A DNA stretch of 36,147 nucleotides. Source: a virus (Duplodnaviria; Heunggongvirae; Uroviricota; Caudoviricetes). Below are positions 9,190 to 35,178 of the stretch, piece after piece. Within the stretch, counting starts at the first letter, position 1. Every line of letters starts with the position of its first letter. A model generated the notes under the pieces. The model was given only the letters and a program-made list of their open reading frames with translations. It was not told the origin of the DNA and ran no database searches. Where the stretch lies: the IMG/VR virus record IMGVR_UViG_2623620505_000004, positions 1 through 36,147 of that record. One strand, written 5' to 3'. The position numbers and the translations under genes are program-made.

Positions 9190-9191
9190 AA

Positions 9192-10391: not shown

Positions 10392-10476
10392 TTTGTTCCA
10401 CCTTTTGGAAGTAAATATTGCTACCTGTTGAGTTTACATGTAATGAGCTGGTAAGCAATACAGGGATTCGATTTAG

Positions 10477-10504: not shown

Positions 10505-10573
10505 TTTTTTGAACGAATTTTTGCCCTTCTGGCCCGCGTGGCGGCTGGATCCGTCAGGGATCCGTGCGTGCAC

Positions 10574-10599
10574 AAAAAAACGCGCTTTTTCTGCGCGCA
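10574..10599 (-). terminator. Putative intrinsic terminator on minus strand (insulates the island from Q-P read-through)
   Basis: Minus strand GCGCGC-AGAAAAA-GCGCG followed by a run of seven T (plus-strand A-run 10574-10580). Confidence 0.4.
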
Positions 10600-10873
10600 G
10601 GTGACGGGGGAACAGCCCGCGTTTCAGGGGGTAAATAGCGTTCCCTTAACGATGTCGCAGCGACACGACAGAATGGCCGTATTTCTCACGCTGAGCGTGA
10701 AAAATACGTGAGGGATTCTGGTTTGATGGGGTGAAAGGTAAGGCCGTCAAAATCGCACTGAGGCGGCGAGAACATGCAGTCAGCGCAGTGGGATTGCGTA
10801 AGAATCTGACCGTCGATGATGGCAATAAGCAGGAAAGCGTCGTGAAATTATCTGACTGATACAGGAGCTGGAG

Positions 10874-10927: not shown

Positions 10928-11974
10928 TCAGGATGTGGGCTGGGTATCTAACAGTGCGTAAGGGTTAAAGCGGATCACCTCTTCGCCAAGCCAGTCATTG
11001 ATGTGCTTCATGGCCTCCATGACGGGCATCAGCTCGTTAATTGCGTAAACCCGCGCGGCCTTCTCCACATCACCAAACGCACTTTTTTCGCCCGGCATCG
11101 CCCCCATCAGTTGCGGCGGAACGCGGTGCGCAGCCAGCACATCATCACGGGATGCCGCCTTAACATTCATGAACTCATCCTTTGCGGTGATCTGCTGGAA
11201 CGGCAAAATTTGCACCCCCTCTTTGCCCCCGTTGGGCGCATGAATGAGCACGTTTTTAAACGCACCACCACCACGTGCCCCCTGTAGCGTTTCTTTCAGG
11301 GAGTCCATGCTTTCGCGGTTTACCTGCGCTGCACCGATGTAGATGATGCACCCGGCGTGGGATCCGTTGTCGTAGTACAGTTTTCTGAACATGTCCGCCG
11401 AATGAGAAAGGCTGGCCGAGAGTAATGCGCCAAGATATTCCGGCATGCCGTAGATTTCCTGGTTAATATCCGGATTCATCAGGTGGCACACTTTGCCAGG
11501 ACGAAACTGAAACGCATCCTTGCCATCCTGCACATACCACCATGATTCAAGATCGCTTCCGCGTCGCATGTATTTCGCCAGGGCGTGCCGTAATTTAAGC
11601 GGTTCGCCGAGCATATTGCTCCGAAGCTCAAGGAATGCGTTACCGAACACAAACCAGTCCAGCGCCAGCGCCGAGAAATCCTGCCGGGAAAGCAGCGGGT
11701 GCGGAATATAGCAGCCGAGCAATACATTGCGCTTAAAGTAAAGCGCAGACTGATGCCAGGACGTTTGCCGGGCAGCTCTTGCCAGACCGTACCAGTCCAC
11801 CGGGGTTTCATACCACCGCCCGTTATCAGCACAGTACATATTGTCCAGCAGGTCATGCCCGGTCAGGCGATAAGGACCATCAAATGTGAATGCACTGAGC
11901 GATGATTCTTTCCTGAGCGCATCAGCGAGATCAATGCGTGAACTCATGCGCACTTTTTTATTTTTTCTGCTCAT
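10928..11974 (-). CDS. Q: Portal protein gpQ
   Basis: 348 aa, position and size as P2 Q; start ATG overlaps the terminase stop by 1 nt (TGATG). First gene product of the leftward Q-P late operon's downstream end. Confidence 0.88.
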   Translation of the reverse strand: MSRKNKKVRMSSRIDLADALRKESSLSAFTFDGPYRLTGHDLLDNMYCADNGRWYETPVDWYGLARAARQTSWHQSALYFKRNVLLGCYIPHPLLSRQDFSALALDWFVFGNAFLELRSNMLGEPLKLRHALAKYMRRGSDLESWWYVQDGKDAFQFRPGKVCHLMNPDINQEIYGMPEYLGALLSASLSHSADMFRKLYYDNGSHAGCIIYIGAAQVNRESMDSLKETLQGARGGGAFKNVLIHAPNGGKEGVQILPFQQITAKDEFMNVKAASRDDVLAAHRVPPQLMGAMPGEKSAFGDVEKAARVYAINELMPVMEAMKHINDWLGEEVIRFNPYALLDTQPTS

Positions 11975-20713: not shown

Positions 20714-21610
20714 ATGCCCGCCGTTGATCTTTCCCAGTTACCGGAACCCGCCATCATCGCGGAGCCTGACTTTGAGGCAATTCTGGCTGACACAAAGGCC
20801 ATGATGATTGCGGCTTATCCCGCCGAACAGCGTGAAGCCGTCTCCGCCGCGCTGGAGCTGGAATCGGAACCCCTGAACGTTATCGCCCAGACAACAGCGT
20901 TTCGTGAAATGCTGTTACGCCAGCGGGTCAATGAGGGGGCACGCGCCTGCATGTTAAGCCACAGCGCCGGGACAGACCTGGACAACCTCGCGGGCAATAT
21001 GAACACAAAGCGCCTGACCATCACTCCGGCAACGGATACCACCGACGCGGTGATGGAGAGCGACACCTCGCTGAGACTGCGGGCGCAGCGGGCGTATGAC
21101 GGCCTGAGTGTTGCAGGCCCGTCAGGCGCATACGAGTATTTTGCACGCAGCGCCAGCGGTCTGGTGCGTGATGCGCGGGCCATCAGCCCGTCTCCGGCCT
21201 GTGTGACGGTTTCCATTCTGTCCACTGAAGGCGACGGCACAGCAACGGAGGCGTTGCTTAATACCGTTCGCGCCGTTCTGAATGCAGAGGATACCCGCCC
21301 GGTGGCCGACCGCCTTACTGTACAGAGCGCCAGAATCGTGACATGGCGGCTGAATGCAAAACTGTACTTTTACCCCGGCCCGGAATCCGAACCTATTCTG
21401 GCCGCGGCGGAATCGTCATTCAGGAAGTGGCTGGCTGAACAGGGGCTTATCGGTCAGGACGTGGCGTTGTCCGCCATTGCTGCCGCACTGCATGTGCACG
21501 GTGTGCAACGCGTGGAGATAATCGAACCCACACAGAATATGGCCATCAGCGACATACAGGCGGCGCGCTGTGAGTCATTCACCATCAGCGAAGGTGGACG
21601 CAATGAGTAA
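20714..21610 (+). CDS. J: Baseplate assembly protein gpJ
   Basis: 298 aa, GAGGGAG RBS, position between W and I. Confidence 0.8.
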   Translation: MPAVDLSQLPEPAIIAEPDFEAILADTKAMMIAAYPAEQREAVSAALELESEPLNVIAQTTAFREMLLRQRVNEGARACMLSHSAGTDLDNLAGNMNTKRLTITPATDTTDAVMESDTSLRLRAQRAYDGLSVAGPSGAYEYFARSASGLVRDARAISPSPACVTVSILSTEGDGTATEALLNTVRAVLNAEDTRPVADRLTVQSARIVTWRLNAKLYFYPGPESEPILAAAESSFRKWLAEQGLIGQDVALSAIAAALHVHGVQRVEIIEPTQNMAISDIQAARCESFTISEGGRNE

Positions 21611-22211
21611 TTCGTTGTTACCACCATCAGCCAGCAATTTCATGCGTTGTGCCGAAGCCGTCGGAACACGCATTACAGACATTCCGGTAGACCTCAACAC
21701 GCTGTGGTCGCCGGACACCTGCCCGGTGCATCTGCTGCCTTATCTCGCCTGGGCGTTTTCCGTTGACCGCTGGGATCGCAACTGGCCGGAAGAGACAAAG
21801 CGACAGGTGATTCGTGATGCATGGCTGATACACCGACACAAAGGGACCATCAGCGCACTGCGAAGAGCCGTGGAGCCTCTCGGCTACCTGATTGAAGTAA
21901 AGGAGTGGTGGCAACTCAACGAGGAGCCGGGAACATTTCGCATTGTTGTCGGAGTACTTGATCAGGGCATCACCGATGAAATGTATCAGGAACTTGAGCG
22001 CCTTATTGCGGATGCAAAACCAGTAAGTCGCCATCTGACGGGGCTGGCGATCAGCCTGAGTGTGAACGGAAAGATTTTCGTTGGTACGGGATGCTATCAC
22101 GGCGATGCCCTGACGGTTTATCCCTACACCCCGGAGTCCATTATTGTCGAAGGGGATTATTTCCCTGCCCCGGCCATTCATTTAATTGATAATCTGAGAG
22201 TAAACGCATGA
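21603..22211 (+). CDS. I: Baseplate protein gpI
   Basis: ATG at 21603 overlapping the J stop (ATGAGTAA); about 202 aa. Confidence 0.75.
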
Positions 22212-23692
22212 CAGTGAAATACTACGCCATTCTGACTAATCAGGGCGCGGCACGACTGGCTAACGCGACGATGCTCGGCAGTAAGCTGAATCTGACGCAA
22301 ATGGCCGTTGGTGATGCAAATGGTGTGTTACCAACACCAGACCCTGCACAAACAAAACTGATTAACCAGAAACGCATTGCACCGCTGAATCTTCTGAGTA
22401 TTGACCCGAACAACCAGAACCAGATTATCGCGGAGCAAATCATCCCTGAGAACGAGGGCGGATTCTGGATCCGTGAGATTGGTCTTTATGATGATGAAGG
22501 CGTACTCATTGCGGTGGCAAACTGCCCGGAAACGTACAAACCGCAGTTGCAGGAAGGCAGTGGACGCACCCAGACTATCCGCATGATTCTGGTTGTCACG
22601 AACACCGAAGCCATCACGCTGAAAATCGACCCGTCTGTGGTTCTGGCAACCCGCAAATATGTGGATGACAAAATCTCAGAGCACGAGCAGTCACGACGTC
22701 ACCCGGACGCCTCGCTGACTGTAAAAGGTTTTACTCAGTTAAGCAGCGCAATTAACAGTGAATCAGAAACACTGGCCGCAACACCGAAAGCGGTTAAGAC
22801 TGCATATGACCTGGCTAACGGGAAATATACCGCCCAGAACGCCACCACAACACAAAAAGGGATTGTTCAGCTCAGTAGCGCCACAAACAGCACGTCTGAA
22901 ACGCTGGCAGCGACACCAAAAGCTGTTAAGGCGGTAATGGATGAAACGAGCAAGAAAGCACCATTAAACAGCCCGGCACTGACCGGAACGCCAACAACAC
23001 CAACAGCACCACAGGGGACTAATAGTACCCAGATCGCAAGCACGGCTTTCGTTATGGCCGCGATTGCCGCACTTGTAGATTCGTCACCTGATGCACTGAA
23101 CACGCTGAACGAACTGGCTGCGGCGCTGGGCAATGACCCGAATTTTGCGACCACCATGACTAACGCGCTTGCGGGTAAGCAACCGAAGGATGCCACCCTG
23201 ACGGCGCTGGCGGAGCTTGCTACATCAGCAGATAAACTCCCATATTTTACAGGGGCAGATCGTGCCGCGTTAACCGCGTTGACAAGTGTTGGACGTGCCA
23301 TTCTTAGTAAAACCAGCACTCAGGGAGTTCTTGATTACCTTGGTTTGGGAGAAGCGGCTAAAAGGAATGTAGGGACAGGTGCGAATCAGATACCTGATAT
23401 GGGTAGTTTTATGCTTTCTGCTACAGTTCCTGGATATCAAAAATTGCCATCCGGTTTAATTATTCAATGGGGGCCAATTGATGTTCCGCTGACGTCTCAG
23501 GACACAGCAACCTATTTTCCGATTGCATTTCCGAACAGATGTCTGCGGGTATTTGCGACTCAGGATTACACTCCCGGCAGTGCAAATGTTGGCTATATAG
23601 CTTGTGCCGGTTATAACCAGGACCCAGTGAAATTTATTTCCAGAGCAGGCGTACCCGGTATCGGTGCTTCATTTTTCGCATTAGGGTGTTAA
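22208..23692 (+). CDS. H: Tail fiber protein gpH (constant N-terminal part plus currently expressed variable C-terminus)
   Basis: N-terminal and central blocks ([48 protein letters not shown] repeats, [55 protein letters not shown]) are near-identical to P2 H as remembered; the C-terminus after LDYLGLGE diverges. Confidence 0.88.
22736..22930 (+). repeat. In-frame tandem repeat in gpH ([19 protein letters not shown] twice)
   Basis: Two 63-nt units at 22736-22798 and 22868-22930 encode near-identical 21-aa segments; the same repeat exists in P2 H as remembered. Confidence 0.6.
23328..23353. promoter_or_regulatory. Left recombination (gix/cix-like) crossover site inside gpH
   Basis: TTCTTGATTACCTTGGTTTGGGAGAA; its reverse complement TTCTCCCAAACCAAGG... 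shares a 14-nt core with the site at 25168-25193 in inverted orientation. Encodes LDYLGLGE at the constant/variable junction of H. Confidence 0.6.
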
Positions 23693-23718
23693 TTTCTTTT
23701 AACTATATGGAGTGAAAA

Positions 23719-24159
23719 ATGAATTACATATATTCCGCGACTACAAACTCTTTCTATCCGCTGGAGATGAAAGAGGATTACACTCAAGCTGACTCATGGC
23801 CAGATGATGCTGTTGAAGTTGATGAGCAAGTGTATATTGAGTTTTCCGGATTACCGCCGAAAGGAAAAATCCGTATCGCTGGAGAAAATGGTTTTCCTGC
23901 ATGGTCTGAAATTCCACCACCAACACATGAGGAACAGATTGCTGCAGCCGAATTGAAAAAGCAGCAATTGATTAATCAGGCCAACGATTATATGAACAGT
24001 AAACAATGGGCTGGTAAAGCGGCTATTGGTCGTCTGAAAGGTGAGGAACTGGCGCAATATAATTTGTGGCTGGATTATCTGGACGCACTGGAGCTGGTCG
24101 ATACTTCCAGTGCGCCAGATATTGAATGGCCTACTCCTCCGGCAGTTCAGGCCAGATGA
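23719..24159 (+). CDS. Tail fiber assembly protein (Tfa/gpG-like), currently expressed copy
   Basis: 146 aa immediately after H; C-terminal DYLDALELVDTSSAPDIEWPTPP matches the C-terminus of the opposite-strand copy (DYIDAVTATDTSTAPDVIWPELPE). Confidence 0.8.
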   Translation: MNYIYSATTNSFYPLEMKEDYTQADSWPDDAVEVDEQVYIEFSGLPPKGKIRIAGENGFPAWSEIPPPTHEEQIAAAELKKQQLINQANDYMNSKQWAGKAAIGRLKGEELAQYNLWLDYLDALELVDTSSAPDIEWPTPPAVQAR

Positions 24160-24727
24160 CATCCGGCGCGGTGCTGGTATCTGTTGCCGTCACCGCGTCA
24201 ATGTAATCCAGCACAGCGTTAAGCCGGGTTGTTTCTGCCTGCGTCAGTTTCCGCCCGGCCCGTAATTTCAGCTGAATCAGACTAATGGAAGCCATTGCTG
24301 CATCAATAAGTGACTGGCGCTGTGCTTCTGCCGCTTCTACTGCGGCACCGTGTTGTGCCTCAGAATCTGTCACCCATTTCTCACCATCCCATTTATCGTA
24401 TGGCGTTAACGGTGAAAGCGTGACATAACCGTCTTTGATGGCACCGATATAATCCACTGTAACAGCTGCACCATTTTCTGTTGAGTAAACAGTCTCATTG
24501 CGATGGTCTTCTTCATGGCTCCATCCCTTACCCGTAAATACTGCCACTTTTCCCGGAATGTTTTCGCCCGGGTCAATACCAGTGGAACAGGCGGGCATAC
24601 TTACACCAGTATTAATATATTCATCAGACCAGCCCGTATATTCATACGTTACTGCATCATAATAAAAACAACGCATATCGCCCGGCACTGTAGCCAGTCC
24701 ATTTTCATCAAAAATTGGGGTCATCAT
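24131..24727 (-). CDS. Alternative tail fiber assembly protein (Tfa'), opposite strand inside invertible segment
   Basis: 198 aa; convergent with and overlapping the plus-strand Tfa 3' end; conserved Tfa C-terminus; start ATG overlaps the stop of the alternative fiber cassette (ATGA). Confidence 0.75.
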   Translation of the reverse strand: MMTPIFDENGLATVPGDMRCFYYDAVTYEYTGWSDEYINTGVSMPACSTGIDPGENIPGKVAVFTGKGWSHEEDHRNETVYSTENGAAVTVDYIGAIKDGYVTLSPLTPYDKWDGEKWVTDSEAQHGAAVEAAEAQRQSLIDAAMASISLIQLKLRAGRKLTQAETTRLNAVLDYIDAVTATDTSTAPDVIWPELPEE

Positions 24728-25167
24728 TTAGCCCTCACCAGAAAGTTAAATGCAATATTTCGCGGTCTGACGGCAACAAAATTCACACCATCACCCACAG
24801 AGTTACTGGTGAAATTAAATCGTGAAAATCCTGGCTGATTTCCGGCGATACCATCATGAAAATTAATTGCGTGGCCCGCACCATCGCCTATATTCCCGGC
24901 AAACTGAGAAAAGTTTGTAGCTGCCTGCCAGCTTAATAATTCGCGACCACCGTCTACACCTCGCCCGTCATCCCAGATACGAATGAAATCACCGCGGGCT
25001 TCAGGTAATACCAGCGAAGGAAACACTTTCGCCAGCACAGGGTAATCAGTGGCAGAAAATTTCGCCCCGTTGAACTTCAAAAACACCATACTGGACCAGC
25101 TGTCGATTACAGTATTTGGCATTGCCGCGGAGGGCCAGAAGAACGGAACGCCAATAGCTGGAGTACC
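24724..25167 (-). CDS. Alternative tail fiber C-terminal cassette (start-less; fuses to gpH after inversion)
   Basis: Minus-strand frame reads through the right crossover site as ...FLNVGLGEG..., continuous with the H junction motif LGLGE; no plausible own start. Confidence 0.6.
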   Translation of the reverse strand, partial: GTPAIGVPFFWPSAAMPNTVIDSWSSMVFLKFNGAKFSATDYPVLAKVFPSLVLPEARGDFIRIWDDGRGVDGGRELLSWQAATNFSQFAGNIGDGAGHAINFHDGIAGNQPGFSRFNFTSNSVGDGVNFVAVRPRNIAFNFLVRAK

Positions 25168-25193
25168 TTCTCCCAAACCAACGTTTAAGAAAA
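25168..25193. promoter_or_regulatory. Right recombination (gix/cix-like) crossover site
   Basis: TTCTCCCAAACCAACGTTTAAGAAAA, an inverted copy of the 23328-23353 core, about 55 bp upstream of the invertase gene. Confidence 0.6.
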
Positions 25194-25248
25194 TGCAGAG
25201 ATTACGGCTAACTGGCATCATCCCCGGTTTTTATTCAGGGGATCCATC

Positions 25249-25848
25249 ATGCTTATTGGCTATGTCCGCGTATCAACAAATGACCAGAATACAGAATTGC
25301 AGCGTAACGCGCTGGAGTGCGCAGGATGTGAACTGATTTTTGAAGATAAAATCAGCGGAACGAAATCAGCCAGACCGGGATTGAAAAAACTGCTCAGAAC
25401 GCTATCAGAAGGAGATACGCTGGTTGTCTGGAAGCTGGACAGACTGGGCAGAAGTATGAAACACCTGATCACGCTTATTGAGGAATTGCGGGAAAAAGGT
25501 GTTAATTTCCGTAGTCTGACGGACAGCATTGACACATCAACACCCATGGGGCGTTTCTTTTTTCACGTCATGGGGGCTTTAGCCGAAATGGAACGTGAAT
25601 TAATTGTAGAGCGTACACTGGCCGGGCTGGCAGCAGCACGCGCACAAGGACGCATTGGCGGACGTCGCCCGAAGTTGACAAAAGAACAACACGAGCAAAT
25701 AGCGAGGCTGATTAAAAACGGTCATGACAGGAAACAACTGGCGATCATTTACGACATCGGCATATCGACGATTTATCGTTATCACCCTGTAGGCGATATA
25801 CAGGCTGAAGAAACAACCAGGCAGACTCAGGAAAATAAAAACCGCTAA
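25249..25848 (+). CDS. Serine DNA invertase (Gin/Cin/Hin/Pin family)
   Basis: MLIGYVRVSTNDQNTELQRNAL..., VVWKLDRLGRSMKHL, C-terminal HTH; 199 aa, the classic small serine recombinase/invertase architecture. Confidence 0.9.
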   Translation: MLIGYVRVSTNDQNTELQRNALECAGCELIFEDKISGTKSARPGLKKLLRTLSEGDTLVVWKLDRLGRSMKHLITLIEELREKGVNFRSLTDSIDTSTPMGRFFFHVMGALAEMERELIVERTLAGLAAARAQGRIGGRRPKLTKEQHEQIARLIKNGHDRKQLAIIYDIGISTIYRYHPVGDIQAEETTRQTQENKNR

Positions 25849-25867
25849 TCTGACCATTAGCGGTTTT
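25840..25867. terminator. Bidirectional intrinsic terminator between convergent invertase and gpU
   Basis: AACCGCTAA-TCTGACCA-TTAGCGGTT, a 9-bp stem, flanked by A-run upstream and TTTG downstream. Confidence 0.55.
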
Positions 25868-25874
25868 GCGTTAA

Positions 25875-26369
25875 TCAAAACAGCCCTTTAACGGAGCTGG
25901 CCGCGCTGTTAAGGGATGATGTGACCTTATCTTTGAAGCCGGACAGCATATCACTGAACGATGAGGATTGCAGGCGCTCCCGCAAATCCTCATCACAGCG
26001 TTCAAGAGTCAGTGAAAATTCTATCTTTTTCGCCTTACCGTAGCGATCAAACTCGGAACGGGTCGTATTCGTTTCAGTCAGTACATACATGCCGTAAATC
26101 TGCCCGACACCATCAATCAGAGGCCAGGGGCGTCCTGTATATGCCTGCGTGGTCAGCAACGAAAGCGACACTTCGCCACCTGTAATTTCAGGATAAAGCA
26201 CGCCGGAAAGCACGATGCGATCATCACCTGCGCCGATATATTGCCAGCTTGCTGAACGATTAACGCGTTCATTTTTCACATGCCGCCAGCTTTTGTTTTG
26301 CTGTAACTGCTGATGCGGCAATGTGCGCAGCTCAAAAACAAACATGCCGTAGATCATCATCATGGCCAT
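25875..26369 (-). CDS. U: Tail protein gpU
   Basis: MAMMMIYGMFVFELRTLPHQQLQ...WRH..N.RVNR...LSGVLYPE.TGG aligns with the P2 U N-terminus as remembered. Confidence 0.85.
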   Translation of the reverse strand: MAMMMIYGMFVFELRTLPHQQLQQNKSWRHVKNERVNRSASWQYIGAGDDRIVLSGVLYPEITGGEVSLSLLTTQAYTGRPWPLIDGVGQIYGMYVLTETNTTRSEFDRYGKAKKIEFSLTLERCDEDLRERLQSSSFSDMLSGFKDKVTSSLNSAASSVKGLF

Positions 26370-26375
26370 GACTCC

Positions 26376-29192
26376 TCAATCTTTATCGTAAAAACTGCCA
26401 CGTCCGGCACGGTCGCGTCGTTCCAATTCTGCCCTGACCATTTCACCGACCAGTTTCGCCAGTTCGCGGGGATTCTGCGTAACAACGTTATGCAGATGAA
26501 CATGAATTTCACCGCCAAATCCGGAGACAACAGGCTCCCGGTTACGGGAAGTTGCAGGAACTGATGCCACTGGCGATCGTATGGCCTCCGCCACCGGGCG
26601 GGAGCTGGCCGCAACAACAGGGACCAGCGCCGGAGGCAGAGGAGTCGGGACCACGGGTGTGATGTTGATTGCGGAAGCAGGCTTACTGACCTGCGCAATC
26701 TTCCGCTCCTGCCACTCCCCACGAACAGCAAGTGCGCGGGGCAGGTTCTTAAAGACAATATCGCCGGGGCCAATGCGTTTTTTCGTCTCATCAACCAGCT
26801 TACCTGTGTTATCAGCAATTTTGCTGAGTCTGCGTAGCGTACCGGTATTGCTGTCTGTGAGCGGTTTGTTGTCTTTGGGTTTATCACCTCCGGTGCCATT
26901 GCCATTTTCCACAGGCTTCGGCGGATTGATTTTCGCCAGGTCCCCCTGAAGCAAGGCAACCTTGTCCTGAAGAATGGCCGCACGCTGTGCGTCTTCGATT
27001 TTCTTGCGCGCCCTTTCCGCTTCATCCGGAAGGACGCCAAGTTTTTCAAGTATCCACGCCAGCGTATCCAGTAGCATTTTTGCAGGCGTCAGAACAAGTT
27101 GTAACGCACCGCCAAGAACGTTACCGAATATCTCGCCAGCACTGGTACATTTATCCAGCGTTTCCTTGCTGGACTCCATCGGTGACAGCAGCGATTTAAA
27201 CCAGTTAAACACCTGGCTGATCCCGCTTCCGATTGCGTCAAAAACAGGACCAAACCGTTCAAAGGTTTCGCGCAACGGGGCCAGCCTTTCCATAATCCCG
27301 CTGAACACCCCGGCAAAAAATGCCCTGATGGGATCCCAGTATTTCCAGATAAGAACGGCAGCTCCGGCAAGTGCAGCCACGATAAGACCAACCGGACTGA
27401 ACAGCGCCCCGATAGCGCCTCCCAGTAAAGAAACGGAACCCGTCACCATTCCCCATAGTGCTGGCAGGACCCTGACAGCATTCATTGATCCGGTCAGGAG
27501 AGAAAAACCAAGACGCAGTTTTGCCAGCGGACCAGCAAGCATACCAATAGCCAGCGACAACGAGCCAACCGTTGCAGTCATTGCCAGCAACGCACCGCCT
27601 GCTATCAGTAGCTGGCGCGTCAGTGCCGGATGGGCCTGCGCCAGCGCCGTCACCCTTGATACCACCCGCGTGAGCCACTGCGTGACAGAACGCAGCGGAC
27701 CGTCAATCAGATCTGCAATGCGGATGCGCAACCCTTCCCATGCACTGCCGAGTGATTTCAGATCGCCGTCAAGGTTGTTGGCCATAACCTTTGCTGTGCG
27801 TTCAGCCTCACCGCGCGCGCCTTCAAGTTCTTTTCTCAGTTTGGGTAAGGAACCGTCACCCGCTGCATCAACGAGCGCCATAAACGATGTGAAAGCCTCT
27901 TCTCCGGCAATGTCCTTAAAGAACGATACCCGGTCAACTTCCCCGTATTTGCGGGTGGCTTTATAAAGGTCGGCCAGCACATCCTCCATCGGGCGCATTT
28001 TGCCCCCGGCATCCGAGACGGACACGCCCAGCTCTTTCAGAGCTTCTGCCGCCGCCTTTGGCGGTGATGCCAGACGAGCCAGGCTGGCACGCATTGCCGT
28101 CCCGGCATCACTCCCTCTGATGCCCATATTCGCCAGCACGCCAGCCATCGCTGCGGCCTGCTCCAGCGATATTCCCAGCTTACCCGCCACCGGACCTGCA
28201 TATTTCATGGTTTCGCCCAGTGCGCGAAGGTCAGTGTTGGTACGGGTAAACGCTGCGGTGAGTGTGTCACCGACCCGGTCCATCTGGTCAGCAGAAAGGC
28301 CGAACTGCGTCAGGATATTTGAGCCAATATCTGCCGTCTCGCCGAGATCCATACCGCCAGCCGTTGCCATGCTCAGCACTCCGGGAAGCGCAGCCTGAAT
28401 GGCCTGCGGTGTGAAGCCAGCCATTGCAAGAAATGCCTGCCCACTGGCGGCATCGCCTGCGGTGAACTGCGTTTCAGAGCCAAGTTTTAACGCCTGCTCA
28501 CGCAGCGCCTTAAACTGCGGGCTGTTCTGGTCGATTCGCGTCAGCGCCTGAACGCGGGACATCTCTTTGCCGAACCCGATCGCGGGCTGCAAAAAACGCC
28601 CGGCAGCATAGCCGCCCGCCGCTGCCGCACCAATTGCCAGCGCACCACCTGTTTTCAGTTTTCCCGCGGTTTCCTGCGCGCGCGAATACCGCTCACGCGC
28701 CCGCGTTACACGCGCAAGCGCCTGCCGTTCGCGTTCAAGCTGGTTGTTGTACTGTTCGGTGCGTCTGATGGCCTGCTGGATGGTGTTATCGCTGCCTGTC
28801 AGGGAAATGCCGTGGCGTTTCAGCTCTCCGCCAAGTTCCCGCATTTTCTGAATTTCCCGTGTGCGCGATTCATTCAGGCGTTCAAGCCGGGTGCTTAACT
28901 GCTGCATCAGCTTTTGTTGTTTTTCGCTGAGCACTGTACCCGTGCGTTGTAACTGATTAAGGGCGTTAAGCTGGCGTCGTGCTTTCACGATGCCCGCATC
29001 CGCTTTACTGACAGCGTCACGGGCGCGCTCAAACGAACGCGCCTGACGCTCGAGATTTTTGATCGCCCCCTGCGTTCGCTGGATGGAGTCACCAAACTGC
29101 CCCATCAGGCGGCGGGCGTTTTCGGCAGGCCGGGTCAGCCTGTCAACGGCGCTGAAAGCGACCCGGATATCAAGAGTCTTCATTGTCTGCAT
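26376..29192 (-). CDS. T: Tail tape measure protein gpT
   Basis: About 940 aa, alanine/glycine-rich with hydrophobic central segments. Start ambiguous: GTG at 29219 (ORF track), ATG at 29192 and 29183. Confidence 0.85.
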   Translation of the reverse strand: MQTMKTLDIRVAFSAVDRLTRPAENARRLMGQFGDSIQRTQGAIKNLERQARSFERARDAVSKADAGIVKARRQLNALNQLQRTGTVLSEKQQKLMQQLSTRLERLNESRTREIQKMRELGGELKRHGISLTGSDNTIQQAIRRTEQYNNQLERERQALARVTRARERYSRAQETAGKLKTGGALAIGAAAAGGYAAGRFLQPAIGFGKEMSRVQALTRIDQNSPQFKALREQALKLGSETQFTAGDAASGQAFLAMAGFTPQAIQAALPGVLSMATAGGMDLGETADIGSNILTQFGLSADQMDRVGDTLTAAFTRTNTDLRALGETMKYAGPVAGKLGISLEQAAAMAGVLANMGIRGSDAGTAMRASLARLASPPKAAAEALKELGVSVSDAGGKMRPMEDVLADLYKATRKYGEVDRVSFFKDIAGEEAFTSFMALVDAAGDGSLPKLRKELEGARGEAERTAKVMANNLDGDLKSLGSAWEGLRIRIADLIDGPLRSVTQWLTRVVSRVTALAQAHPALTRQLLIAGGALLAMTATVGSLSLAIGMLAGPLAKLRLGFSLLTGSMNAVRVLPALWGMVTGSVSLLGGAIGALFSPVGLIVAALAGAAVLIWKYWDPIRAFFAGVFSGIMERLAPLRETFERFGPVFDAIGSGISQVFNWFKSLLSPMESSKETLDKCTSAGEIFGNVLGGALQLVLTPAKMLLDTLAWILEKLGVLPDEAERARKKIEDAQRAAILQDKVALLQGDLAKINPPKPVENGNGTGGDKPKDNKPLTDSNTGTLRRLSKIADNTGKLVDETKKRIGPGDIVFKNLPRALAVRGEWQERKIAQVSKPASAINITPVVPTPLPPALVPVVAASSRPVAEAIRSPVASVPATSRNREPVVSGFGGEIHVHLHNVVTQNPRELAKLVGEMVRAELERRDRAGRGSFYDKD

Positions 29193-29438
29193 TCCCGCTG
29201 CGAAGTGCCGCCCGCTCACGCCAGCTAACCACTTCGCCGGGCGTCATCATGAAGATTTCGGCGGGCGACCAGTTAAAAATGGCGGCGATATCTGCCACCA
29301 GATCTTCGATGTGCTCAAAGCACACCAGGGTGATTACGCTGCCGTCTCCTGCACGCTCTTCGCGCCAGAGTCTGGCTCGCTCATAAAATTTACAGCTACA
29401 GCGCACAACTGAATAAAATCGCGTGACGACATTTTTTT
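29170..29438 (-). CDS. gpE' extension reached by programmed -1 frameshift from gpE (E+E' product)
   Basis: A7 run on the coding strand (plus 29432-29438 is T7) within ...ATT AAA AAA ATG... of gpE; the -1 frame is open from 29436 down to the stop at 29172-29170. Frame arithmetic (E codon starts at positions congruent to 2 mod 3, E' to 0 mod 3) fits a -1 slip. Confidence 0.5.
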
Positions 29439-29708
29439 AATCATCACTTCATCCAGTCGTGGCGAGGTCACGCGAGGCAACAGCGTGAACATGGTATCCG
29501 CTTTCAGATTCAGCACATCAGACAGCGACAGACCACGCAGGGATCCAGCCTGTTCAATAGCCCCGGTGATCTCCACATACGTGATTTTTTCGCCACCACG
29601 CTCAATTGGTCGGGTCAGTTTTACGCCACGTTCGACAGCCATATCCTCACCTGCCGTCACATCATCCGCCACGGTGTTATTCCGGGTTTCAGTATCGATG
29701 TCTTTCAT
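29334..29708 (-). CDS. E: Tail assembly chaperone gpE
   Basis: ATG at 29708 after AAGGAG; 124 aa; between the tail tube and tape measure genes. Confidence 0.8.
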   Translation of the reverse strand: MKDIDTETRNNTVADDVTAGEDMAVERGVKLTRPIERGGEKITYVEITGAIEQAGSLRGLSLSDVLNLKADTMFTLLPRVTSPRLDEVMIKKMSSRDFIQLCAVAVNFMSEPDSGAKSVQETAA

Positions 29709-29763
29709 CAGTTGTCTCCTTTTCAGTCAGAGGCGACGCACTGCGCCGCCTGCATATTACTTA

Positions 29764-30276
29764 TCAGCCAAGCCCAAGCGCGGAACGGATACGGTCAGGC
29801 ACAATGTCCTTGCCGTCCTTCCGGTAGATGTGGTTCAACAGGTCGATTTCCCACAGCGGGCGATCGTTAACGCTCAGCTTGTAGTAGGTGTTTTTGACAG
29901 CGTAAGTGTGTGATGTGGCTTCGCCCTGTTTGGCTTCCCCCATATCAATTTCCGTCACACGTCCGCGCATCTCGATTTCATACAGATCGCTTTCTGCATC
30001 GGTGTAGTATTCACCCGCAAAACGCAGCAGCGTGCCGTCAATCGTGCCGCCATATTTAAGGAACAGCGCACGAACAGCTCCCCCCATAACAAAACTCGCA
30101 TCAAGCGCGGAGTCGTCCAGACCGAGATCAATACTTACCGCCCCCATCATGCCACCACCACGATAGCTGTCGGTTTTGCGCGTCAGTTTGGGCGGCGTGA
30201 CGGATGTCACTTTACCCACTTCGTTTTCACCATCCACAAACAACGTAAAAAAGCGAAGATGTTTTGGTACAGCCAT
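29764..30276 (-). CDS. FII: Tail tube protein gpFII
   Basis: MAVPKHLRFFTLFVDG...VTPPKLTRKTDSYRGGGMMG...LRFAGEY aligns with P2 FII as remembered; start overlaps the FI stop (TGATG). Confidence 0.9.
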   Translation of the reverse strand: MAVPKHLRFFTLFVDGENEVGKVTSVTPPKLTRKTDSYRGGGMMGAVSIDLGLDDSALDASFVMGGAVRALFLKYGGTIDGTLLRFAGEYYTDAESDLYEIEMRGRVTEIDMGEAKQGEATSHTYAVKNTYYKLSVNDRPLWEIDLLNHIYRKDGKDIVPDRIRSALGLG

Positions 30277-31460
30277 CAGGCACCTCCCAGCACCGCAAAT
30301 GCGGGACCAAAGAATTCATCAGTAAACGTCTGGTAAAGCTCCATGTCTTCCAGTGGCGGAACGGGCGTATATTTGTAGCGAATACGCACACGTCCCTGAC
30401 GTAAATTCGTGGTGCCGTTATCCACCACGTCATACCAGCACTCCGCACCAATCAGTTTCCCGGCAGTAACCAGCGAATCCAGTTTTGCCCTGATGGCACT
30501 GATAACATCCTTCACGTTCGCAGGCGTCAGTGGACTGTCGATGGTTTCAAACTGCGCTTCCGCAATTGAATCAGCCAGCACCTGTGCGGTTCGGGTATAC
30601 ACCTCAAAGATGTAGGCGTTCGTTTCCGGTGTGCGGTTGCCCCAGAAGCGGAACCCGTTGCGGCGAATGATGGTGGTGATTTCCTTGTTGTTGAGGCTGT
30701 TGGCGTCACTGTCCTCGGCCTGTAACGACCAGAAAACATGTTGTGACATGCCCAGGACATTTTTAACCGGAACATTGGACAGCGATTTGTGCCAGCCCTG
30801 CTCATGGTCAATATACGCACGAAGGCCGCACGCATAAGCAGGCGCGGGGAACGTTTCGTTTTTACCACTTTTCGGGTTGTAGGCGATGAAGTCAGGCCAT
30901 AAGAGCATCACCTCACGTTCGTTGAATTTCTGGCGGTAGGTAATCGCCTCAGCCATCGTGTTACAGCCGTGACATGAGGCATACACAAACGCGCGCAGTT
31001 TACCCGCAATCACGCACAGGGATTTTGTTACCGCCTCCGTGTCCAGCTCCGGCGCGGCCAGAATACGCGGACGGTATCCGATGCTTTCATCCTGCTCTGC
31101 AACAAGCAGCGCATACATCCCCGTATAGCTGCCGTCATCCTCAGAACCACCGATAACCAGTTGATCCTGCGTCTTTCCGTCTTCTTCTTTGTGTTCAGCC
31201 ACGCGAACGACGATCACCTTTGTGCTCACCTGGTCTGCGATGGCCTTAAGCGCACGATAAAGCGTCCCCGTTGTCCCGCATTTTCCCAGCACGTCATTGA
31301 CGCGGGTCAGCAGTGTGGGCTTGTTCAGCGGGAACAGCTTCGCGTCCGCATCATCCGCCGTTGCCACGATACCGATAACGCTGGAATCAACATCGTTAAT
31401 CGCTGTTACCAGGTCGGTACTTTCCGTAACACGGGCACCATGAAAACGAGTTTCACTCAT
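30276..31460 (-). CDS. FI: Contractile tail sheath protein gpFI
   Basis: 394 aa, MSETRFHGARVTE...; size, position and order FI-FII-E-T-U as in P2. Confidence 0.9.
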   Translation of the reverse strand: MSETRFHGARVTESTDLVTAINDVDSSVIGIVATADDADAKLFPLNKPTLLTRVNDVLGKCGTTGTLYRALKAIADQVSTKVIVVRVAEHKEEDGKTQDQLVIGGSEDDGSYTGMYALLVAEQDESIGYRPRILAAPELDTEAVTKSLCVIAGKLRAFVYASCHGCNTMAEAITYRQKFNEREVMLLWPDFIAYNPKSGKNETFPAPAYACGLRAYIDHEQGWHKSLSNVPVKNVLGMSQHVFWSLQAEDSDANSLNNKEITTIIRRNGFRFWGNRTPETNAYIFEVYTRTAQVLADSIAEAQFETIDSPLTPANVKDVISAIRAKLDSLVTAGKLIGAECWYDVVDNGTTNLRQGRVRIRYKYTPVPPLEDMELYQTFTDEFFGPAFAVLGGA

Positions 31461-31617
31461 AGCTTCAGCCCCTTGTATCCGTTAAATGATTCGGCAACAA
31501 TCATCACCCACCACGCGCGTAATCTCACCCCTGCGCCGTTCTCCCGACCCGGCGACAACAAAAAGCAGTAACCCCCTCCGCACGCACATGCGACCATGCC
31601 GCACAGGGAGAGAACAG
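31461..31617. promoter_or_regulatory. Divergent promoter region between FI (minus) and D (plus)
   Basis: Intergenic region that must carry promoters for the minus-strand FI-U block and for plus-strand D; no confident Ogr dyad recognised. Confidence 0.35.
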
Positions 31618-32727
31618 ATGACCGATACCACCATGCAATTGCTCAGTCAGGGCACAGACCCCGTGAAAATGCCGGATTTTGATATTCTCGCAGAGGGTAA
31701 AACGCTGTCCGGCGTGGCAGAACGCCTGATGAGCCTGTCGCTGACCGACAACCGGGGATTTGAAGCGGACCAGCTCACCATCAAGCTGGATGATGCGGAT
31801 GGTCAGTTGCAGCTACCGCCACGGGGCGCGCGCCTGACGGTTCTCATTGGCTGGAAAGGAGAACCGCTGACAGAAAAAGGCACTTACATTGTTGATGAAA
31901 TCGCTCACGAAGGACCGCCGGACAGGCTGACTGTTTCAGCCAGAAGCGCAGATTTTCGGGATGAATTTAACGTTAAACGTGAGGTGTCCTGGCATGATGT
32001 GACCGTTGAACGCGTGGTATCCGCCATCGCTCATCGGTACGGCCTGAAACCGCAAATCAGCGAAATGCTGATGGATATCGAAATCGACCACGCCGACCAG
32101 ACTGAAGAAAGCGACATGTCCTTCCTTACGCGCATGGCGGAAATGCTGGGCGCAATCACCACGGTAAAAAGCGGTAATCTGTTATTCATCATGCCCGGTG
32201 GTGGCGTGAACGCACAGGGTCAGCCGTTGCCATCGTTTGCCATCACACGCAACAGCGGCGATCGCCATCAGTTCCGCATTGCTGACCGCGAGGCGTATAC
32301 GGGTGTACGCGCCTACTGGCTTGATCTTAATTACGGGAAAAAGAAAAAAGTCAGCGTGAAACGCCGCAAACCGCCAAAACCCAAAAAGGAGAAAAGTAGC
32401 AGCCGTGAAGGTGATTATATGGAAGGCGCGGAAGGCAATGTGTTTGTGTTACGCAAGACTTATCAAAACGAGCAGGCAGCAAGACGCGCAGCGGCGGCAA
32501 AGTGGCAGCAGCTACAACGCGGAGCCGCAGCGTTCTCCATCACACTGGCACGTGGACGCGCAGAACTCTACCCCGAAATGCATGGCACGGTAACAGGATT
32601 TAAAAGCGAGATTGATAATCAGGACTGGATTATTGCGAAAGCCGAGCACACCATTGATAACAGCGGCTTTACCACGCAGCTTGAGCTTGAAGCAAAAATC
32701 CCGGAGTGGATAGCAGAAACAGAGTAA
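31618..32727 (+). CDS. D: Late tail protein gpD
   Basis: ATG at 31618 after GGAG; blocks SWHDVTVERV, ESDMSFLTRMA, GNLLF, WLDLNYGKKKKVSVKRR, AKWQQLQRGAAAFSITLARG align with P2 D as remembered. The ORF-track start at 31486 lies upstream. Confidence 0.85.
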   Translation: MTDTTMQLLSQGTDPVKMPDFDILAEGKTLSGVAERLMSLSLTDNRGFEADQLTIKLDDADGQLQLPPRGARLTVLIGWKGEPLTEKGTYIVDEIAHEGPPDRLTVSARSADFRDEFNVKREVSWHDVTVERVVSAIAHRYGLKPQISEMLMDIEIDHADQTEESDMSFLTRMAEMLGAITTVKSGNLLFIMPGGGVNAQGQPLPSFAITRNSGDRHQFRIADREAYTGVRAYWLDLNYGKKKKVSVKRRKPPKPKKEKSSSREGDYMEGAEGNVFVLRKTYQNEQAARRAAAAKWQQLQRGAAAFSITLARGRAELYPEMHGTVTGFKSEIDNQDWIIAKAEHTIDNSGFTTQLELEAKIPEWIAETE

Positions 32728-33039: not shown

Positions 33040-35178
33040 TCAGGCAATCTCGCGACCAACATCGTCATTTGCCGCAAAAGCTGATAGTAACAAATTATCA
33101 CACTCAGTTATGACATATTCTGGAATGAGATCGAATCTAGCCGGATCCAGCTGGCAGATAAACTCATTTTCGATATGATAGGTTTCATTAATAAATTTCT
33201 GAATTACAGAGTTTGTATGCTCAATACCCATTAACCTGAAAACTTGCAATTTTTCGTAGCTACTTTTGCAACTGAAATAAAGCGTGGTGAGAAAGTTTTC
33301 GCAGGTGATTTTTGCTAGCTCTACCTTATAGTTGAAATCTGGAATATGATTAATTATTTCGTGACAACCTAAATTTTCACTAACTTCTGACATTAACGAA
33401 TATTCCCCGTCGATCTTCGCCAAGCGCCTATCCTCCAGAAATTCCCGCTTATGAAAAAGATTTGAAAGCACTTGATAGGCATCCCCCAGATCATCAAGGA
33501 TTTCGTAATGACGGCGAAGATATATCAACTTAATAATATCGTCACTCACAGACTGTAGAGCCGATGTGCAGATTTGAGCAAAAGTTTTGATATCCGAATT
33601 TGAAATTGGTTGCTCTGTAATAACACCATTACTGTAGCGGAGATAAGCTGCTGAAACTTGATTATCAAATTGCTGCCTAACAGCGCGAATAGTATCGATG
33701 ATTGGCTCAACATCATGCGTCAACATCAGCACTGTTTTACTCTTAAGACAATCAGATGGCTCTCTACGAAAAAGCATTTCAAGAATCGCAAACTTCTTAT
33801 TTTTATCGAACGAGGAAATGGGATCATCCAAAATAATCAGACTTGGTTTTCTAGAAAGACATTCATACATGAAGAGCACGAGGGCAAACGCATTTCTTTC
33901 ACCGTAACTTAGATGTTGGCTACCACCAGTGACGACATCTGTATGATCTACATGATAGAGTTGTAGTCGTGGCTGTGCATCGTCTGTTATCCGCACACGG
34001 TAACGATAACCAGCATAGGATAGAAAATCATTGATATTTTTTTGGTGCTTTATAACGAGCTGGCGTACTTTATTCCGCTGCTGATTCAGTTTACCCTGAA
34101 GTGGTCCAGCGCTTGCAATTAGATCAGTCAGAGAAGTATTGAGTGCATCAACAATACGTGTGGTTTCTTCTGATTGAAGTTCAGTAAAGAAGTCCAGATT
34201 CAACTTGTAAGAGGCGAGTTTAGCAGCTACATCGTCTCCTTCTGTGAAGCTAAATCCGGAAAGCGTTTTAAGCACGGTAAGTTTATCTATTAGATCATCT
34301 GTTTGAGATTTAAGGGTGATAAGATATGTTTCATGCTGCTGCTCAAGACCATTAGGAAGGGTTGTGATTTCTTTAAGACGATCACGGGCAGAGTCAGTAA
34401 GGTAAATTCCTAAACGCTGAATGACATCAACAAGCTCCATCAAATTTTTGATGACAGCTTGGTCATATTCTACTCCAACCTGTTGAATTCGTTGTTGTTG
34501 TTGTTCGGTAGATTCACTACTGCAATAAGGACAGTACTCACCCGCAAGTTCACCAAACTCTGTTAGCCCTTTTGTCTGCCAAGCAATCCACTGCACACTT
34601 TTATTACTAGTTATCATGTTTCTGTACGGTTCAAGTGCGGCAGGGATATGAAGAAGTTTATTACCTCCAGCAAGCGCTTTCATACCCTTTGTACTTTTAC
34701 TAAGAGCAGATGCTGCAGTGACTTTAAATGCACTGGATAAAACAGTGAGATCGCTCAATAGGGTTTCCAGTTGTGTATGCTCGGTAAACACCTGACGGAT
34801 CGTCGAAATAATTAATTCTATTTCACTCTCTGTTCTGATATACGCGTCAGTTTTGATTAATATGTCGAAACTGTTGGCTACAAGCTCATCCTGACGGAAT
34901 GTGAACTGGCTAACATACTCCTCATTGAAACACATTATATTATCTAGTTGTTCCATTCCGGTCACAGAGGGCGCAACATTATCGGGGTTATTTGCCCTGA
35001 ATTTAAAAGGAAGTAATTCTGCCAAACAAGCTTCCTGCCCAGGCAAACTGAACTGCATCGCCCGAGCAATAGTGCTTTTCCCTGTACCATTCGGCGCAAA
35101 ACGAATATTCAACTTTTTTTCGGCTAGAGAAACAGTAGCAAAGTCAATGCTATTACAGTAACTAATTTCAATTTCCAT
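33040..35178 (-). CDS. Rad50/SMC-like ABC ATPase with coiled-coil CxxC hook and C-terminal HEPN-like domain (RloC/AAA_13-like); candidate single-gene defense protein
   Basis: ATG at 35178 after GAAGG. Walker A APNGTGKST near the N-terminus; long helical insert containing CPYC; signature LSYGERN, Walker B LIILDDP and H-loop LMLTHD about 450 residues later; C-terminal about 200 aa with RLMGIEH (Rx5H). AT-rich island. Confidence 0.75.
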   Translation of the reverse strand: MEIEISYCNSIDFATVSLAEKKLNIRFAPNGTGKSTIARAMQFSLPGQEACLAELLPFKFRANNPDNVAPSVTGMEQLDNIMCFNEEYVSQFTFRQDELVANSFDILIKTDAYIRTESEIELIISTIRQVFTEHTQLETLLSDLTVLSSAFKVTAASALSKSTKGMKALAGGNKLLHIPAALEPYRNMITSNKSVQWIAWQTKGLTEFGELAGEYCPYCSSESTEQQQQRIQQVGVEYDQAVIKNLMELVDVIQRLGIYLTDSARDRLKEITTLPNGLEQQHETYLITLKSQTDDLIDKLTVLKTLSGFSFTEGDDVAAKLASYKLNLDFFTELQSEETTRIVDALNTSLTDLIASAGPLQGKLNQQRNKVRQLVIKHQKNINDFLSYAGYRYRVRITDDAQPRLQLYHVDHTDVVTGGSQHLSYGERNAFALVLFMYECLSRKPSLIILDDPISSFDKNKKFAILEMLFRREPSDCLKSKTVLMLTHDVEPIIDTIRAVRQQFDNQVSAAYLRYSNGVITEQPISNSDIKTFAQICTSALQSVSDDIIKLIYLRRHYEILDDLGDAYQVLSNLFHKREFLEDRRLAKIDGEYSLMSEVSENLGCHEIINHIPDFNYKVELAKITCENFLTTLYFSCKSSYEKLQVFRLMGIEHTNSVIQKFINETYHIENEFICQLDPARFDLIPEYVITECDNLLLSAFAANDDVGREIA

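Follow-up and report, generated by a model that had tools for sequence, protein, structure and literature searches.

A predicted tail fibre switch of the Gin/Pin inversion type in a P88-like prophage

Results

Organization of the tail fibre locus

The window analysed here is a stretch of 36,147 nucleotides of tailed-phage DNA (IMG/VR record IMGVR_UViG_2623620505_000004), in which a tail fibre gene, two fibre assembly genes, an alternative fibre tip and a DNA invertase gene follow one another (Table 1). The H reading frame (22208–23692, plus strand) encodes 494 amino acid residues. Its constant N-terminal part, Hc, features the Pfam domain Phage_tail_fib (1–150; E = 7e-63) and Phage_fiber_2 repeats, and its DNA is 81% identical to P2 H over 22424–23254. 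The original prediction, made from the letters of the DNA alone, had placed the left crossover site at the junction of the P2-like and the divergent parts of H. The site is indeed inside H, but the similarity to P2 stops at 23254, about 85 nt before it.

Table 1. Features of the tail fibre locus (positions refer to the window)
Feature	Position	Strand	Description	Basis
Hc, constant N-terminal part of tail fibre gene H	22208–23339	+	about 377 codons, outside the segment	
Left crossover site	23328–23353		26 bp, TTCTTGATTACC-TT-GGTTTGGGAGAA, central TT 23340–23341, inside H	consensus search
Tip Sv, now fused to Hc (H, 494 aa)	23339–23692	+	gp53-like / R-pyocin-fibre-like C-terminal domain	
Invertible segment	23340–25181		1,842 bp between the central dinucleotides	in-silico inversion; found inverted in public contig L009
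Tfa	23719–24159	+	146-aa tail fibre assembly chaperone paired with Sv	Pfam Caudo_TAP, E = 2e-38; phrog_188, E = 8e-67
Tfa′	24131–24727	−	198-aa chaperone paired with Sv′	Pfam Caudo_TAP, E = 4e-28; phrog_105, E = 8e-84
Tip Sv′, silent alternative C-terminus	24724–25184	−	153 codons, T4 gp37-like ‘tail collar’ tip	
Right crossover site	25168–25193		26 bp, TTCTCCCAAACC-AA-CGTTTAAGAAAA, central AA 25180–25181	consensus search
Serine DNA invertase, Gin/Cin/Pin/Hin group	25249–25848	+	199 aa	Pfam Resolvase, E = 6e-52, and HTH_7
Putative recombinational enhancer, in the invertase gene	25271–25333		Fis-like 15-mers 25271–25285 and 25319–25333, 48 bp apart	
Hairpin, candidate terminator	25838–25867		12-bp stem, between the convergent invertase and gpU genes	

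The two tips resemble different kinds of fibre, as emerged from the comparison with known fibre domains that had been proposed as a check. The expressed tip, Sv, has a Gp53-like_C domain at residues 412–494 (Pfam, E = 3e-17) and matches PDB 4mtm (E = 7e-5), the R2 pyocin fibre 6ct8 (E = 2e-4) and tail-fibre families of PHROG. The alternative tip, Sv′, matches phrog_3100 (E = 2e-53) and phrog_523 (E = 4e-42), in both cases at the C-terminal ends of the fibre profiles, and shows a weak match to the T4 gp37 tip (2xgf, E = 0.009). This reading frame had been described as a start-less alternative tip. An alternative tip is present on the minus strand, but the frame has in-frame ATGs at 25221 and 25218, which lie outside the segment. 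Each of the two tips has its own Caudo_TAP gene downstream, the gene behind Sv′ being the second, opposite-strand Tfa gene that had been predicted. The 3′ end of Tfa′ overlaps Tfa by 29 bp, and e14 and pro483 have the identical 29-bp overlap. In NCBIfam, neither the fibre nor the Tfa proteins matched a specific family, and the invertase had sub-threshold matches only. A promoter scan in and next to the segment gave nothing above chance, and the terminator scan called the hairpin at the end of the invertase gene only on the minus strand, on which the stem is followed by a run of T.

The gene order of the window is that of P88, in which the block from sheath to U lies on the strand opposite to V-W-J-I-H and D, and the sheath/D junction is 98.7% identical to that of P88. 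Judged by gene order and sequence, this E. coli prophage is a member of the P88 lineage (genus Xuanwuvirus) rather than of P2 proper. The sheath-tube-E-T-U block (25875–31460), which abuts the invertase gene, is opposite in strand to the P2 order, and we considered whether it might constitute a second invertible segment. We rejected this candidate, since P88-like phages normally have their genes in this arrangement, which 1,109 of 5,426 E. coli genomes contain, since no inverted repeat was found at the ends of the block, and since the window has no third crossover-like site at up to three mismatches.

Two inverted crossover sites bound the segment

To locate crossover sites, we searched the whole window with the 26-bp consensus of the Hin/Gin/Cin/Pin-type family, TTMTCNNAAACCNNGGTTTNNGAKAA, allowing up to three mismatches. 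Exactly two matches were obtained, against 0.01 expected, and no additional crossover-like site appeared in the window at this threshold. The two matches occupy precisely the 26-nt intervals within which inverted copies of a 14-nt core had been predicted. The same consensus, applied to Mu, recovered exactly the annotated boundaries of the G segment and, applied to P1, exactly the annotated cixL and cixR, with nothing else in either locus.

The shared 14-nt core, TTGGTTTGGGAGAA (23340–23353), is the reverse complement of TTCTCCCAAACCAA (25168–25181). The sites are thus inverted relative to each other, and their central TT and AA are the same dinucleotide read on opposite strands. The perfect inverted match covers 15 nt (23340–23354 versus 25167–25181), and the inverted-repeat search extended it to 18 nt with one mismatch, the arms being separated by 1,812 nt. 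As a bare inverted repeat it is unexceptional, being only the fourth longest of the 70 pairs found within 6.5 kb; what makes it significant is the match to the 26-bp family consensus. Away from the shared core, the outer half-sites are degenerate, and the left site has three mismatches to the consensus. The right site is identical in 25 of 26 positions to the invertase-proximal sites of e14 and pro483. Both sites are translated in one and the same register with respect to the central TT, as had been proposed; the peptide encoded at the left site is the expected LGLGE, while the right site, on the minus strand, reads VGLGE instead.

The invertase and a putative enhancer within its gene

The product of the adjacent gene aligns with Mu Gin (PDB 4m6f) at E = 1.3e-91, gapless over residues 1–185, which bears out its assignment to the Gin family of serine invertases. 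It retains the conserved residues Ser9, Arg7, and Asp64-Arg65 with Arg68, as well as the YVRVS and DRLGR motifs, and its His106 and Met114 are those of the wild type. At least 23 contigs encode the identical 199-residue protein. Between the right site and the ATG of the invertase gene, the promoter scan called no sigma-70-like promoter.

Near the 5′ end of the gene are two 15-mers that fit a Fis consensus attributed to Huebner and Arber (1989). Both are found at nucleotides 23–37 and 71–85 of the gene in all six invertase genes compared, and these positions fall inside the enhancer that the P1 record annotates at nucleotides 19–90 of cin. Synonymous-codon identity was 0.61 in the putative enhancer as compared with 0.46 in the remaining gene, a modest excess, as 10 of 154 sliding windows scored equally high. 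In the Hin system, the centres of the Fis sites are 47 bp apart and the enhancer lies about 100 bp from a hix site (PMC3798978). We infer that the switch described here would likewise depend on Fis and on the putative enhancer.

Both orientations occur in otherwise identical DNA

Inversion of the segment in silico, over the approximately 1.8 kb originally predicted, keeps the frame and creates an in-frame fibre, H′, of 529 residues, and this product is found in nature: H′ is identical in 526 of 529 residues to an annotated fibre of E. coli CFIAFB20190157, and the flipped 401-nt junction occurs in public sequence at 99.8% identity.

The clearest case is a public contig (L009) whose flanks are 100.000% identical to the window over 2,106 and 4,682 nt and in which 23340–25184 is inverted with one mismatch in 1,845 (99.946%). 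The alignments overlap only in the 15–18-nt shared core, placing the breakpoints inside the sites. Thus, both orientations exist in otherwise identical DNA, and tip and chaperone are exchanged between identical flanks, as had been anticipated by analogy with Mu G and P1 C. This evidence is a comparison between genomes, the window itself showing one orientation only. Not one substitution separates the 6.8 kb of flanks in this contig from the window, although its segment has the opposite orientation, so the flip postdates any point mutation in these flanks.

Three further public sequences (L011, L012 and L003) are also flipped relative to the window, and collinearity with all four breaks inside the left site; in L003, the stretch matching window 23355–23895 is additionally replaced by unrelated sequence. 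Strain 06-00048 is collinear with the window. In e14-like elements, which are 92.6% identical to the segment, the sub-strains BH100 and BH100N have opposite orientations, and RIVM isolates have them at nearly the same chromosomal coordinates. Both orientations are present in RefSeq chromosome records of complete-genome level. Six contigs (L013–L018) begin either 0–5 bases before or 8–16 bases after the start of the right site (25168), and the exact 494-residue H was found in one contig only, which ends about 25 nt short of that site. Inversion in e14 and in two P2-like prophages has been shown by sequencing, and for e14 and one P2-like locus also by PCR (PMC4272514).

Relation to known inversion switches

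The layout of the locus is that of the P segment of e14 with its invertase PinE: constant part of stf, site, tip and Tfa, reversed Tfa′ and tip′, site, pin. E14-like elements annotated with pinE are 92.6% identical to window 23337–25689, the similarity starting exactly at the left site. The surroundings differ, e14 having a lambdoid side-tail-fibre gene in a defective element and the window a P2-type H in a complete-looking Peduoviridae prophage. The e14 of K-12 itself is partly similar (88% over the 3′ halves of tfa and 76% over pinE), and we rejected it as the closest relative because the similarity is partial and the 92.6% matches are to e14-like elements in other strains. The invertase has 199 residues in the window and 184 in e14, and its C-terminal third, read side by side, looks closer to that of P88.

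With Mu G/Gin and P1 C/Cin, the locus shares the class of mechanism, the gene logic (Sc, Sv-U, U′-Sv′, invertase), the 26-bp site architecture and the place, in the invertase gene, of what is here a putative enhancer. Its segment, at 1.8 kb, is smaller than those of Mu (about 3 kb) and P1 (4.2 kb); its core dinucleotide is TT/AA, as in P1 cix, and not TC/GA as in Mu gix. The tips bear no relation to S and S′ of Mu, and the phage backbone is a different one. Salmonella Hin/hix shares the enzyme family and the 26-bp sites, and its Fis-bound enhancer, in the invertase gene about 100 bp from one site (PMC3798978), has a putative counterpart in the window; Hin, however, flips a promoter, whereas in the window a coding-sequence fusion is switched.

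Among P2-like phages, P88 has the same succession of fibre, Tfa, Tfa′ (−), fibre′ (−), invertase (+), U-T-E-tube-sheath (−) and D (+), but its cassettes are Mu/P1-like, and the search of P88 yielded a single gix-like site, whose core is TC. The Peduovirus pro483 has the same switch with pix-like sites but its sheath block in the P2 orientation. Neither record annotates sites or a segment, and the P88 paper makes no mention of an invertase or inversion. As the original prediction had stated, P2 has no invertible segment at this place, where H and G are followed by fun(Z) on the opposite strand and then FI. By published description, the P2-like prophages of EPEC E2348/69 are similar in that an invertase and inverted repeats invert the C-termini of tail fibres; the segments, of about 1.8–2.2 kb, were detected by whole-genome sequencing (Goldberg et al. 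2014, PMC4272514), and one locus has three repeats and four variants (PMC4272514).

Discussion

Alternative explanations

We consider it very probable that, in this P88-like prophage (Peduoviridae, Xuanwuvirus), the tail fibre is switched by site-specific inversion of the Gin/Pin type. The anatomy could instead be that of a fossil, kept while flipping has ceased because the invertase is unexpressed or the outer half-sites are unbound, the differences in orientation then being old events. The missing promoter-like site upstream of the invertase, the three mismatches in the left site and the single orientation in the window would fit such a history. We regard it as very unlikely, given an intact invertase with every catalytic residue kept, the recurrence of the identical protein across contigs, and the opposite orientation between flanks without a substitution; the six contigs that begin near the start of the right site are also consistent with mixed orientations in the sequenced cultures. 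Repeats of 15–18 nt are too short for efficient homologous recombination, which counts against the notion that the orientation differences arose without the invertase, by RecA-dependent recombination, horizontal cassette replacement or assembly errors. Cassette replacement does occur, as in L003, the module shared with e14-like elements sets in exactly at the left site, and the clearest flips come from draft assemblies, some of them short-read. Nevertheless, the breakpoints map exactly to the central dinucleotide within the 26-bp sites, both orientations are represented among complete chromosomes, and an 18-nt repeat, being shorter than assembly k-mers, should not produce a false inversion. 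An origin independent of the invertase is therefore, in our judgement, exceedingly improbable.

The switch might also flip and serve mainly something other than phage host range, as a domesticated element of the host or in the control of neighbouring genes. It has been speculated that prophage switches of this kind may be put to use by the host (Goldberg et al., PMC4272514), and translation from an in-frame ATG beyond the segment might in principle yield a free Sv′ fragment. The prophage, however, looks complete, with integrase, gpA, portal, terminase, capsid, lysis, baseplate, sheath, tube, tape measure and D genes; a flip alters only the frame of the fibre tip and the identity of the downstream chaperone, and promoter-like elements inside the segment do not exceed chance. 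A principal role outside host range thus seems highly unlikely.

Proposed mechanism and implications

For a tail fibre switch, the following course of events can be proposed. The late V-W-J-I-H operon would read into the segment, and only the tip and chaperone lying in plus orientation beside Hc would be expressed, from the upstream late promoter as in the family. In the state seen in the window, this would be Hc-Sv, the 494-residue fibre with the gp53-like tip, together with Tfa. Dimers of the invertase would bind both 26-bp sites, and the sites would then meet at the Fis-bound enhancer within the invertase gene. By the chemistry of the family, Ser9 would cut at the central TT/AA, and rotation by 180 degrees and religation would follow. 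The product would be Hc fused in frame to Sv′, the 529-residue fibre with the T4 gp37-like tip, with Tfa′ behind it.

As a flip swaps both tip and chaperone, a lysogen population would release two kinds of virion differing in receptor specificity. The tips come from different families (gp53-like/R-pyocin-like and T4 gp37-like), which makes different receptors likely; the two orientations probably bind different receptors and so change the host range. More tentatively, and with considerable doubt, we suggest that the switch is a portable module, with the left site as its junction, that moves between unrelated prophages, lambdoid e14-like and P2-like, and whose invertase might also flip the segments of co-resident prophages in trans. 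We count in favour of this that the e14-like similarity begins exactly at the left site, that 25 of 26 positions agree among the invertase-proximal sites of e14, pro483 and the window, and that many E. coli genomes have several related copies (median 2, maximum 12 places in a genome). Such movement could proceed through invertase-mediated recombination between DNA molecules, and flipping in trans of near-identical segments might couple the fibre states of several prophages in a cell.

The type of switch is already known, textbook matter since Mu G and P1 C, and it involves no new principle; P2-like phages commonly have an invertase at this position, as has been described before, and the presence of such switches in P2-like prophages has been annotated and experimentally shown. 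For annotation, the ‘incomplete tail protein, missing N-terminus’ beside the recombinase would be the silent half of a two-state fibre gene, not a pseudogene, and predicting the host range of this prophage therefore needs both tips. The switch would also account for the breaks that draft assemblies of such lysogens show here.

Gene order of the prophage

The window looks like a complete prophage of the P2 family (see table). It is not P2 proper: the block from sheath to U is on the − strand and D is on the + strand, as in phage P88 (genus Xuanwuvirus), for which this gene order is standard. The genes concerned (sheath, tube, E, tape measure and U on the − strand, D on the +) occupy 25875-32727, in an arrangement inverted relative to the FI-FII-E-T-U-D operon of P2. 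The same sheath/D layout was found in 13 phage records and in 1,109 of 5,426 E. coli genomes. We rejected 25875-32727 as a second invertible segment, since its arrangement is the normal P88-like order. The D reading frame as listed has 413 aa and starts 25 nt from the sheath start; because its Pfam match begins only at residue 136, the true start and the divergent late promoters probably lie within the first ~250 nt.

Features of the prophage and of its invertible tail-fibre segment
Feature	Position	Strand	Remark
Integrase	596-1720	−	
gpA	4366-7188		
Portal and terminase	10928-13725	−	
Capsid, lysis and baseplate genes		+	
Tail fibre gene H	22208-23692	+	494 aa
Left crossover site	23328-23353		TTCTTGATTACC-TT-GGTTTGGGAGAA; Hin/Gin/Cin/Pin type, full 26 bp
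Tfa chaperone	23719-24159	+	146 aa
Tfa', second Tfa chaperone	24131-24727	−	198 aa
Sv' fibre-tip reading frame	24724-25184	−	
Right crossover site	25168-25193		TTCTCCCAAACC-AA-CGTTTAAGAAAA; Hin/Gin/Cin/Pin type, full 26 bp
Recombinase	25249-25848	+	199 aa
Fis-like 15-mers	25271-25285 and 25319-25333		48 bp apart

Three further loci lie outside the switch. The early region (7265-8224, +) encodes a ParM-type actin-like segregation protein (StbA_N and ParM C-terminal domain, E=2e-82), an unusual gene in a P2-like phage that integrates; in a related prophage of strain 06-00048, a partition or stability gene adjoins the ParM-type gene. Between the replication/partition genes and the portal gene, the position of P2's old/tin hotspot, a two-gene pair (8671-10391, −) encodes a 399-aa AAA_15 ATPase (AbiLi-like, E=1e-27) and a 174-aa OLD-like TOPRIM protein with weak AbiLii and GajA matches; the pair probably forms a defence system of the AbiL or PARIS type. 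A 712-aa AAA_13/ABC-type ATPase (33040-35178, −), encoded downstream of D and close to the right prophage end, aligns along its entire length with the PADLOC candidate defence family PDC-S06 (E=2e-277); in P2-like phages this region has been described as a hotspot for defence genes.

Crossover sites and fibre cassettes

The original prediction placed inverted copies of a 14-nt core within H and at 25168-25193, and both are present; the shared core extends to 15 nt perfectly and to 18 nt with one mismatch (23337-23354 versus 25167-25184). Among inverted repeats as such it does not stand out, ranking 4th of 70 pairs in 6.5 kb; it is significant because each copy forms a complete 26-bp site of Hin/Gin/Cin/Pin type. 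A search of the 36-kb window with the family pattern TTMTCNNAAACCNNGGTTTNNGAKAA, allowing up to 3 mismatches, returned exactly these two sites, against 0.01 expected. We validated this pattern on known systems: Mu gave no matches other than the two annotated boundaries of its G segment, P1 none other than cixL and cixR as annotated, and the lambdoid prophage e14 and the Peduovirus phage pro483 gave two sites each, where expected. The invertase-proximal sites of e14 and pro483 are identical to that of the window at 25 of 26 positions.

Outside the segment, H carries Phage_tail_fib and Phage_fiber_2 domains and, up to 23254, P2 H shares 81% DNA identity with it. Sv, the tip that is in frame in the window, is a C-terminal domain of the gp53-like kind, akin to R-pyocin fibre tips. 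The silent tip, Sv', belongs to 'tail collar' fibre families and weakly resembles the T4 gp37 tip, including its C-terminal NIAFN..VR motif. A separate Caudo_TAP chaperone gene lies downstream of each tip. Read from the central TT, the two sites encode GLGE in one common frame, and inversion of 23340-25181 in silico yields an uninterrupted 529-aa fibre, H'. The alternative tip had also been called start-less, but strictly it is not: two in-frame ATGs lie outside the segment (25218-25223, −), 12-13 codons upstream of the crossover site, giving a 165-aa reading frame. No obvious ribosome-binding-site spacing was seen before these ATGs.

The cassettes are mosaic (window 23337 onward and 24592-25186; 9455-10726 of the closest complete genome). 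The module is common to e14-like elements from exactly the left site (23337) onward; Sv' and the first part of Tfa' (24592-25186) recur at 90% in the lambdoid phages mEp213 and mEp043, and the closest complete genome has unrelated sequence in place of 23355-23895, which covers the Sv tip and the beginning of Tfa.

The invertase and a putative enhancer

The recombinase adjoining the segment is of the Gin family, as predicted: it has Resolvase and HTH_7 domains, aligns with Mu Gin without gaps over 185 residues (E=1.3e-91) and keeps the DRLGR motif and Ser9, the nucleophile. His at position 106 and Met at 114 are the wild-type residues; crystallised Gin has Val at 114, the sole difference there in its alignment with Met114 of the window, and this crystallised form is a Fis-independent mutant. 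Beside other invertases the protein looks mosaic. Read side by side, without region-by-region identities, the first ~60 residues most resemble pro483 and PinE, and the DNA-binding C-terminal third (~120-180) most resembles that of P88. Despite this last likeness, the single P88 site that was found is gix-like, whereas those of the window are pix-like.

In the P1 record, the enhancer of Cin is annotated at nt 19-90 of cin. Fis-like 15-mers occur at gene nt 23-37 and 71-85 in all six invertase genes compared (window, Cin, Gin, PinE, pro483 and P88). Synonymous-codon identity is 0.61 in the enhancer stretch versus 0.46 in the rest of the gene, a modest excess, as 10 of 154 sliding windows reach the former value. 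In Hin, the 65-bp enhancer has 15-bp Fis sites at both ends, with centres 47 bp apart, and lies ~100 bp from one hix site (PMC3798978). The geometry of the putative enhancer fits this system, and we infer that Fis may bind there. A scan between the right site and the invertase ATG found no promoter-like site for the invertase.

Both orientations occur in public genomes

Four comparative lines of evidence say that the segment flips. The predicted H' is identical at 526 of 529 residues to an annotated 529-aa fibre of E. coli CFIAFB20190157, in which the segment has the opposite orientation, the predicted 401-nt flipped junction is found at 99.8% identity, and the adjoining recombinase matches that of the window at 197 of 199 residues. 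Strain 06-00048, with the same recombinase accession (again 197/199), is collinear with the window.

Exact look-up of the invertase protein retrieved a locus (L009) whose flanks are 100.000% identical to window 21249-23354 and 25167-29848 (2,106 and 4,682 nt), with 23340-25184 inverted between them at a single mismatch over 1,845 nt. Overlap of the alignments is confined to the 15-18-nt core common to both sites. Two more loci (L011 and L012) have the segment inverted likewise. Six contigs with the identical invertase start 0-5 bases before or 8-16 after 25168, the start of the right site. Mixed orientations in a culture would give such starts, and so could repeats at other places in those genomes. 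One of the six (L016) includes 15 nt of the segment, in flipped orientation.

The e14-like elements match window 23337-25689 at 92.6% identity; among them, sub-strains BH100 and BH100N differ in the orientation of the segment, and so do RIVM isolates at nearly equal chromosomal coordinates. Coexisting orientations have been shown experimentally for e14 and two EPEC P2-like prophages, all three detected via sequencing, with PCR confirmation for e14 and one P2-like locus (PMC4272514).

Relation to known switches and proposed mechanism

The predicted invertible tail-fibre switch at 23328-25848 is real and was correctly read. As far as sequence can tell, it has all the defining features of Gin/Cin/Pin/Hin and phage fibre-inversion systems apart from the enhancer, a candidate whose conservation fits. 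The anatomy, the family membership, the kept reading frame and the existence of both states are shown. By analogy with the family, we propose as most likely that the late operon V-W-J-I-H is transcribed into the segment, so that the tip and chaperone facing the same way as H would be the ones made. The invertase, with Fis at the enhancer, would exchange DNA at the central dinucleotides and swap tip and chaperone; a lysogen could then release virions of two receptor specificities.

P2, with the order H, G, fun(Z) on the other strand and FI, has no invertible segment, as the original prediction stated. According to a recent survey, the Z/fun hotspot of P2-like phages 'often' contains a DNA invertase, with adjacent genes inverted (bioRxiv 10.1101/2024.10.15.618418). 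In P88, the position corresponding to that in the window is annotated with a DNA invertase and with fibre and Tfa genes that run in reverse, pro483 has the same switch, and the P segment of e14 is the closest known system. The switch is already known in kind, and essentially the same module is present in many public genomes. On the least ordinary reading, lambdoid and P2-like prophages may exchange the module at its crossover site, and the invertase may act in trans on co-resident segments. Invertases of the Gin/Cin/Pin/Hin type are interchangeable; such exchange and trans action, if true, would introduce no new principle and would extend this interchangeability.
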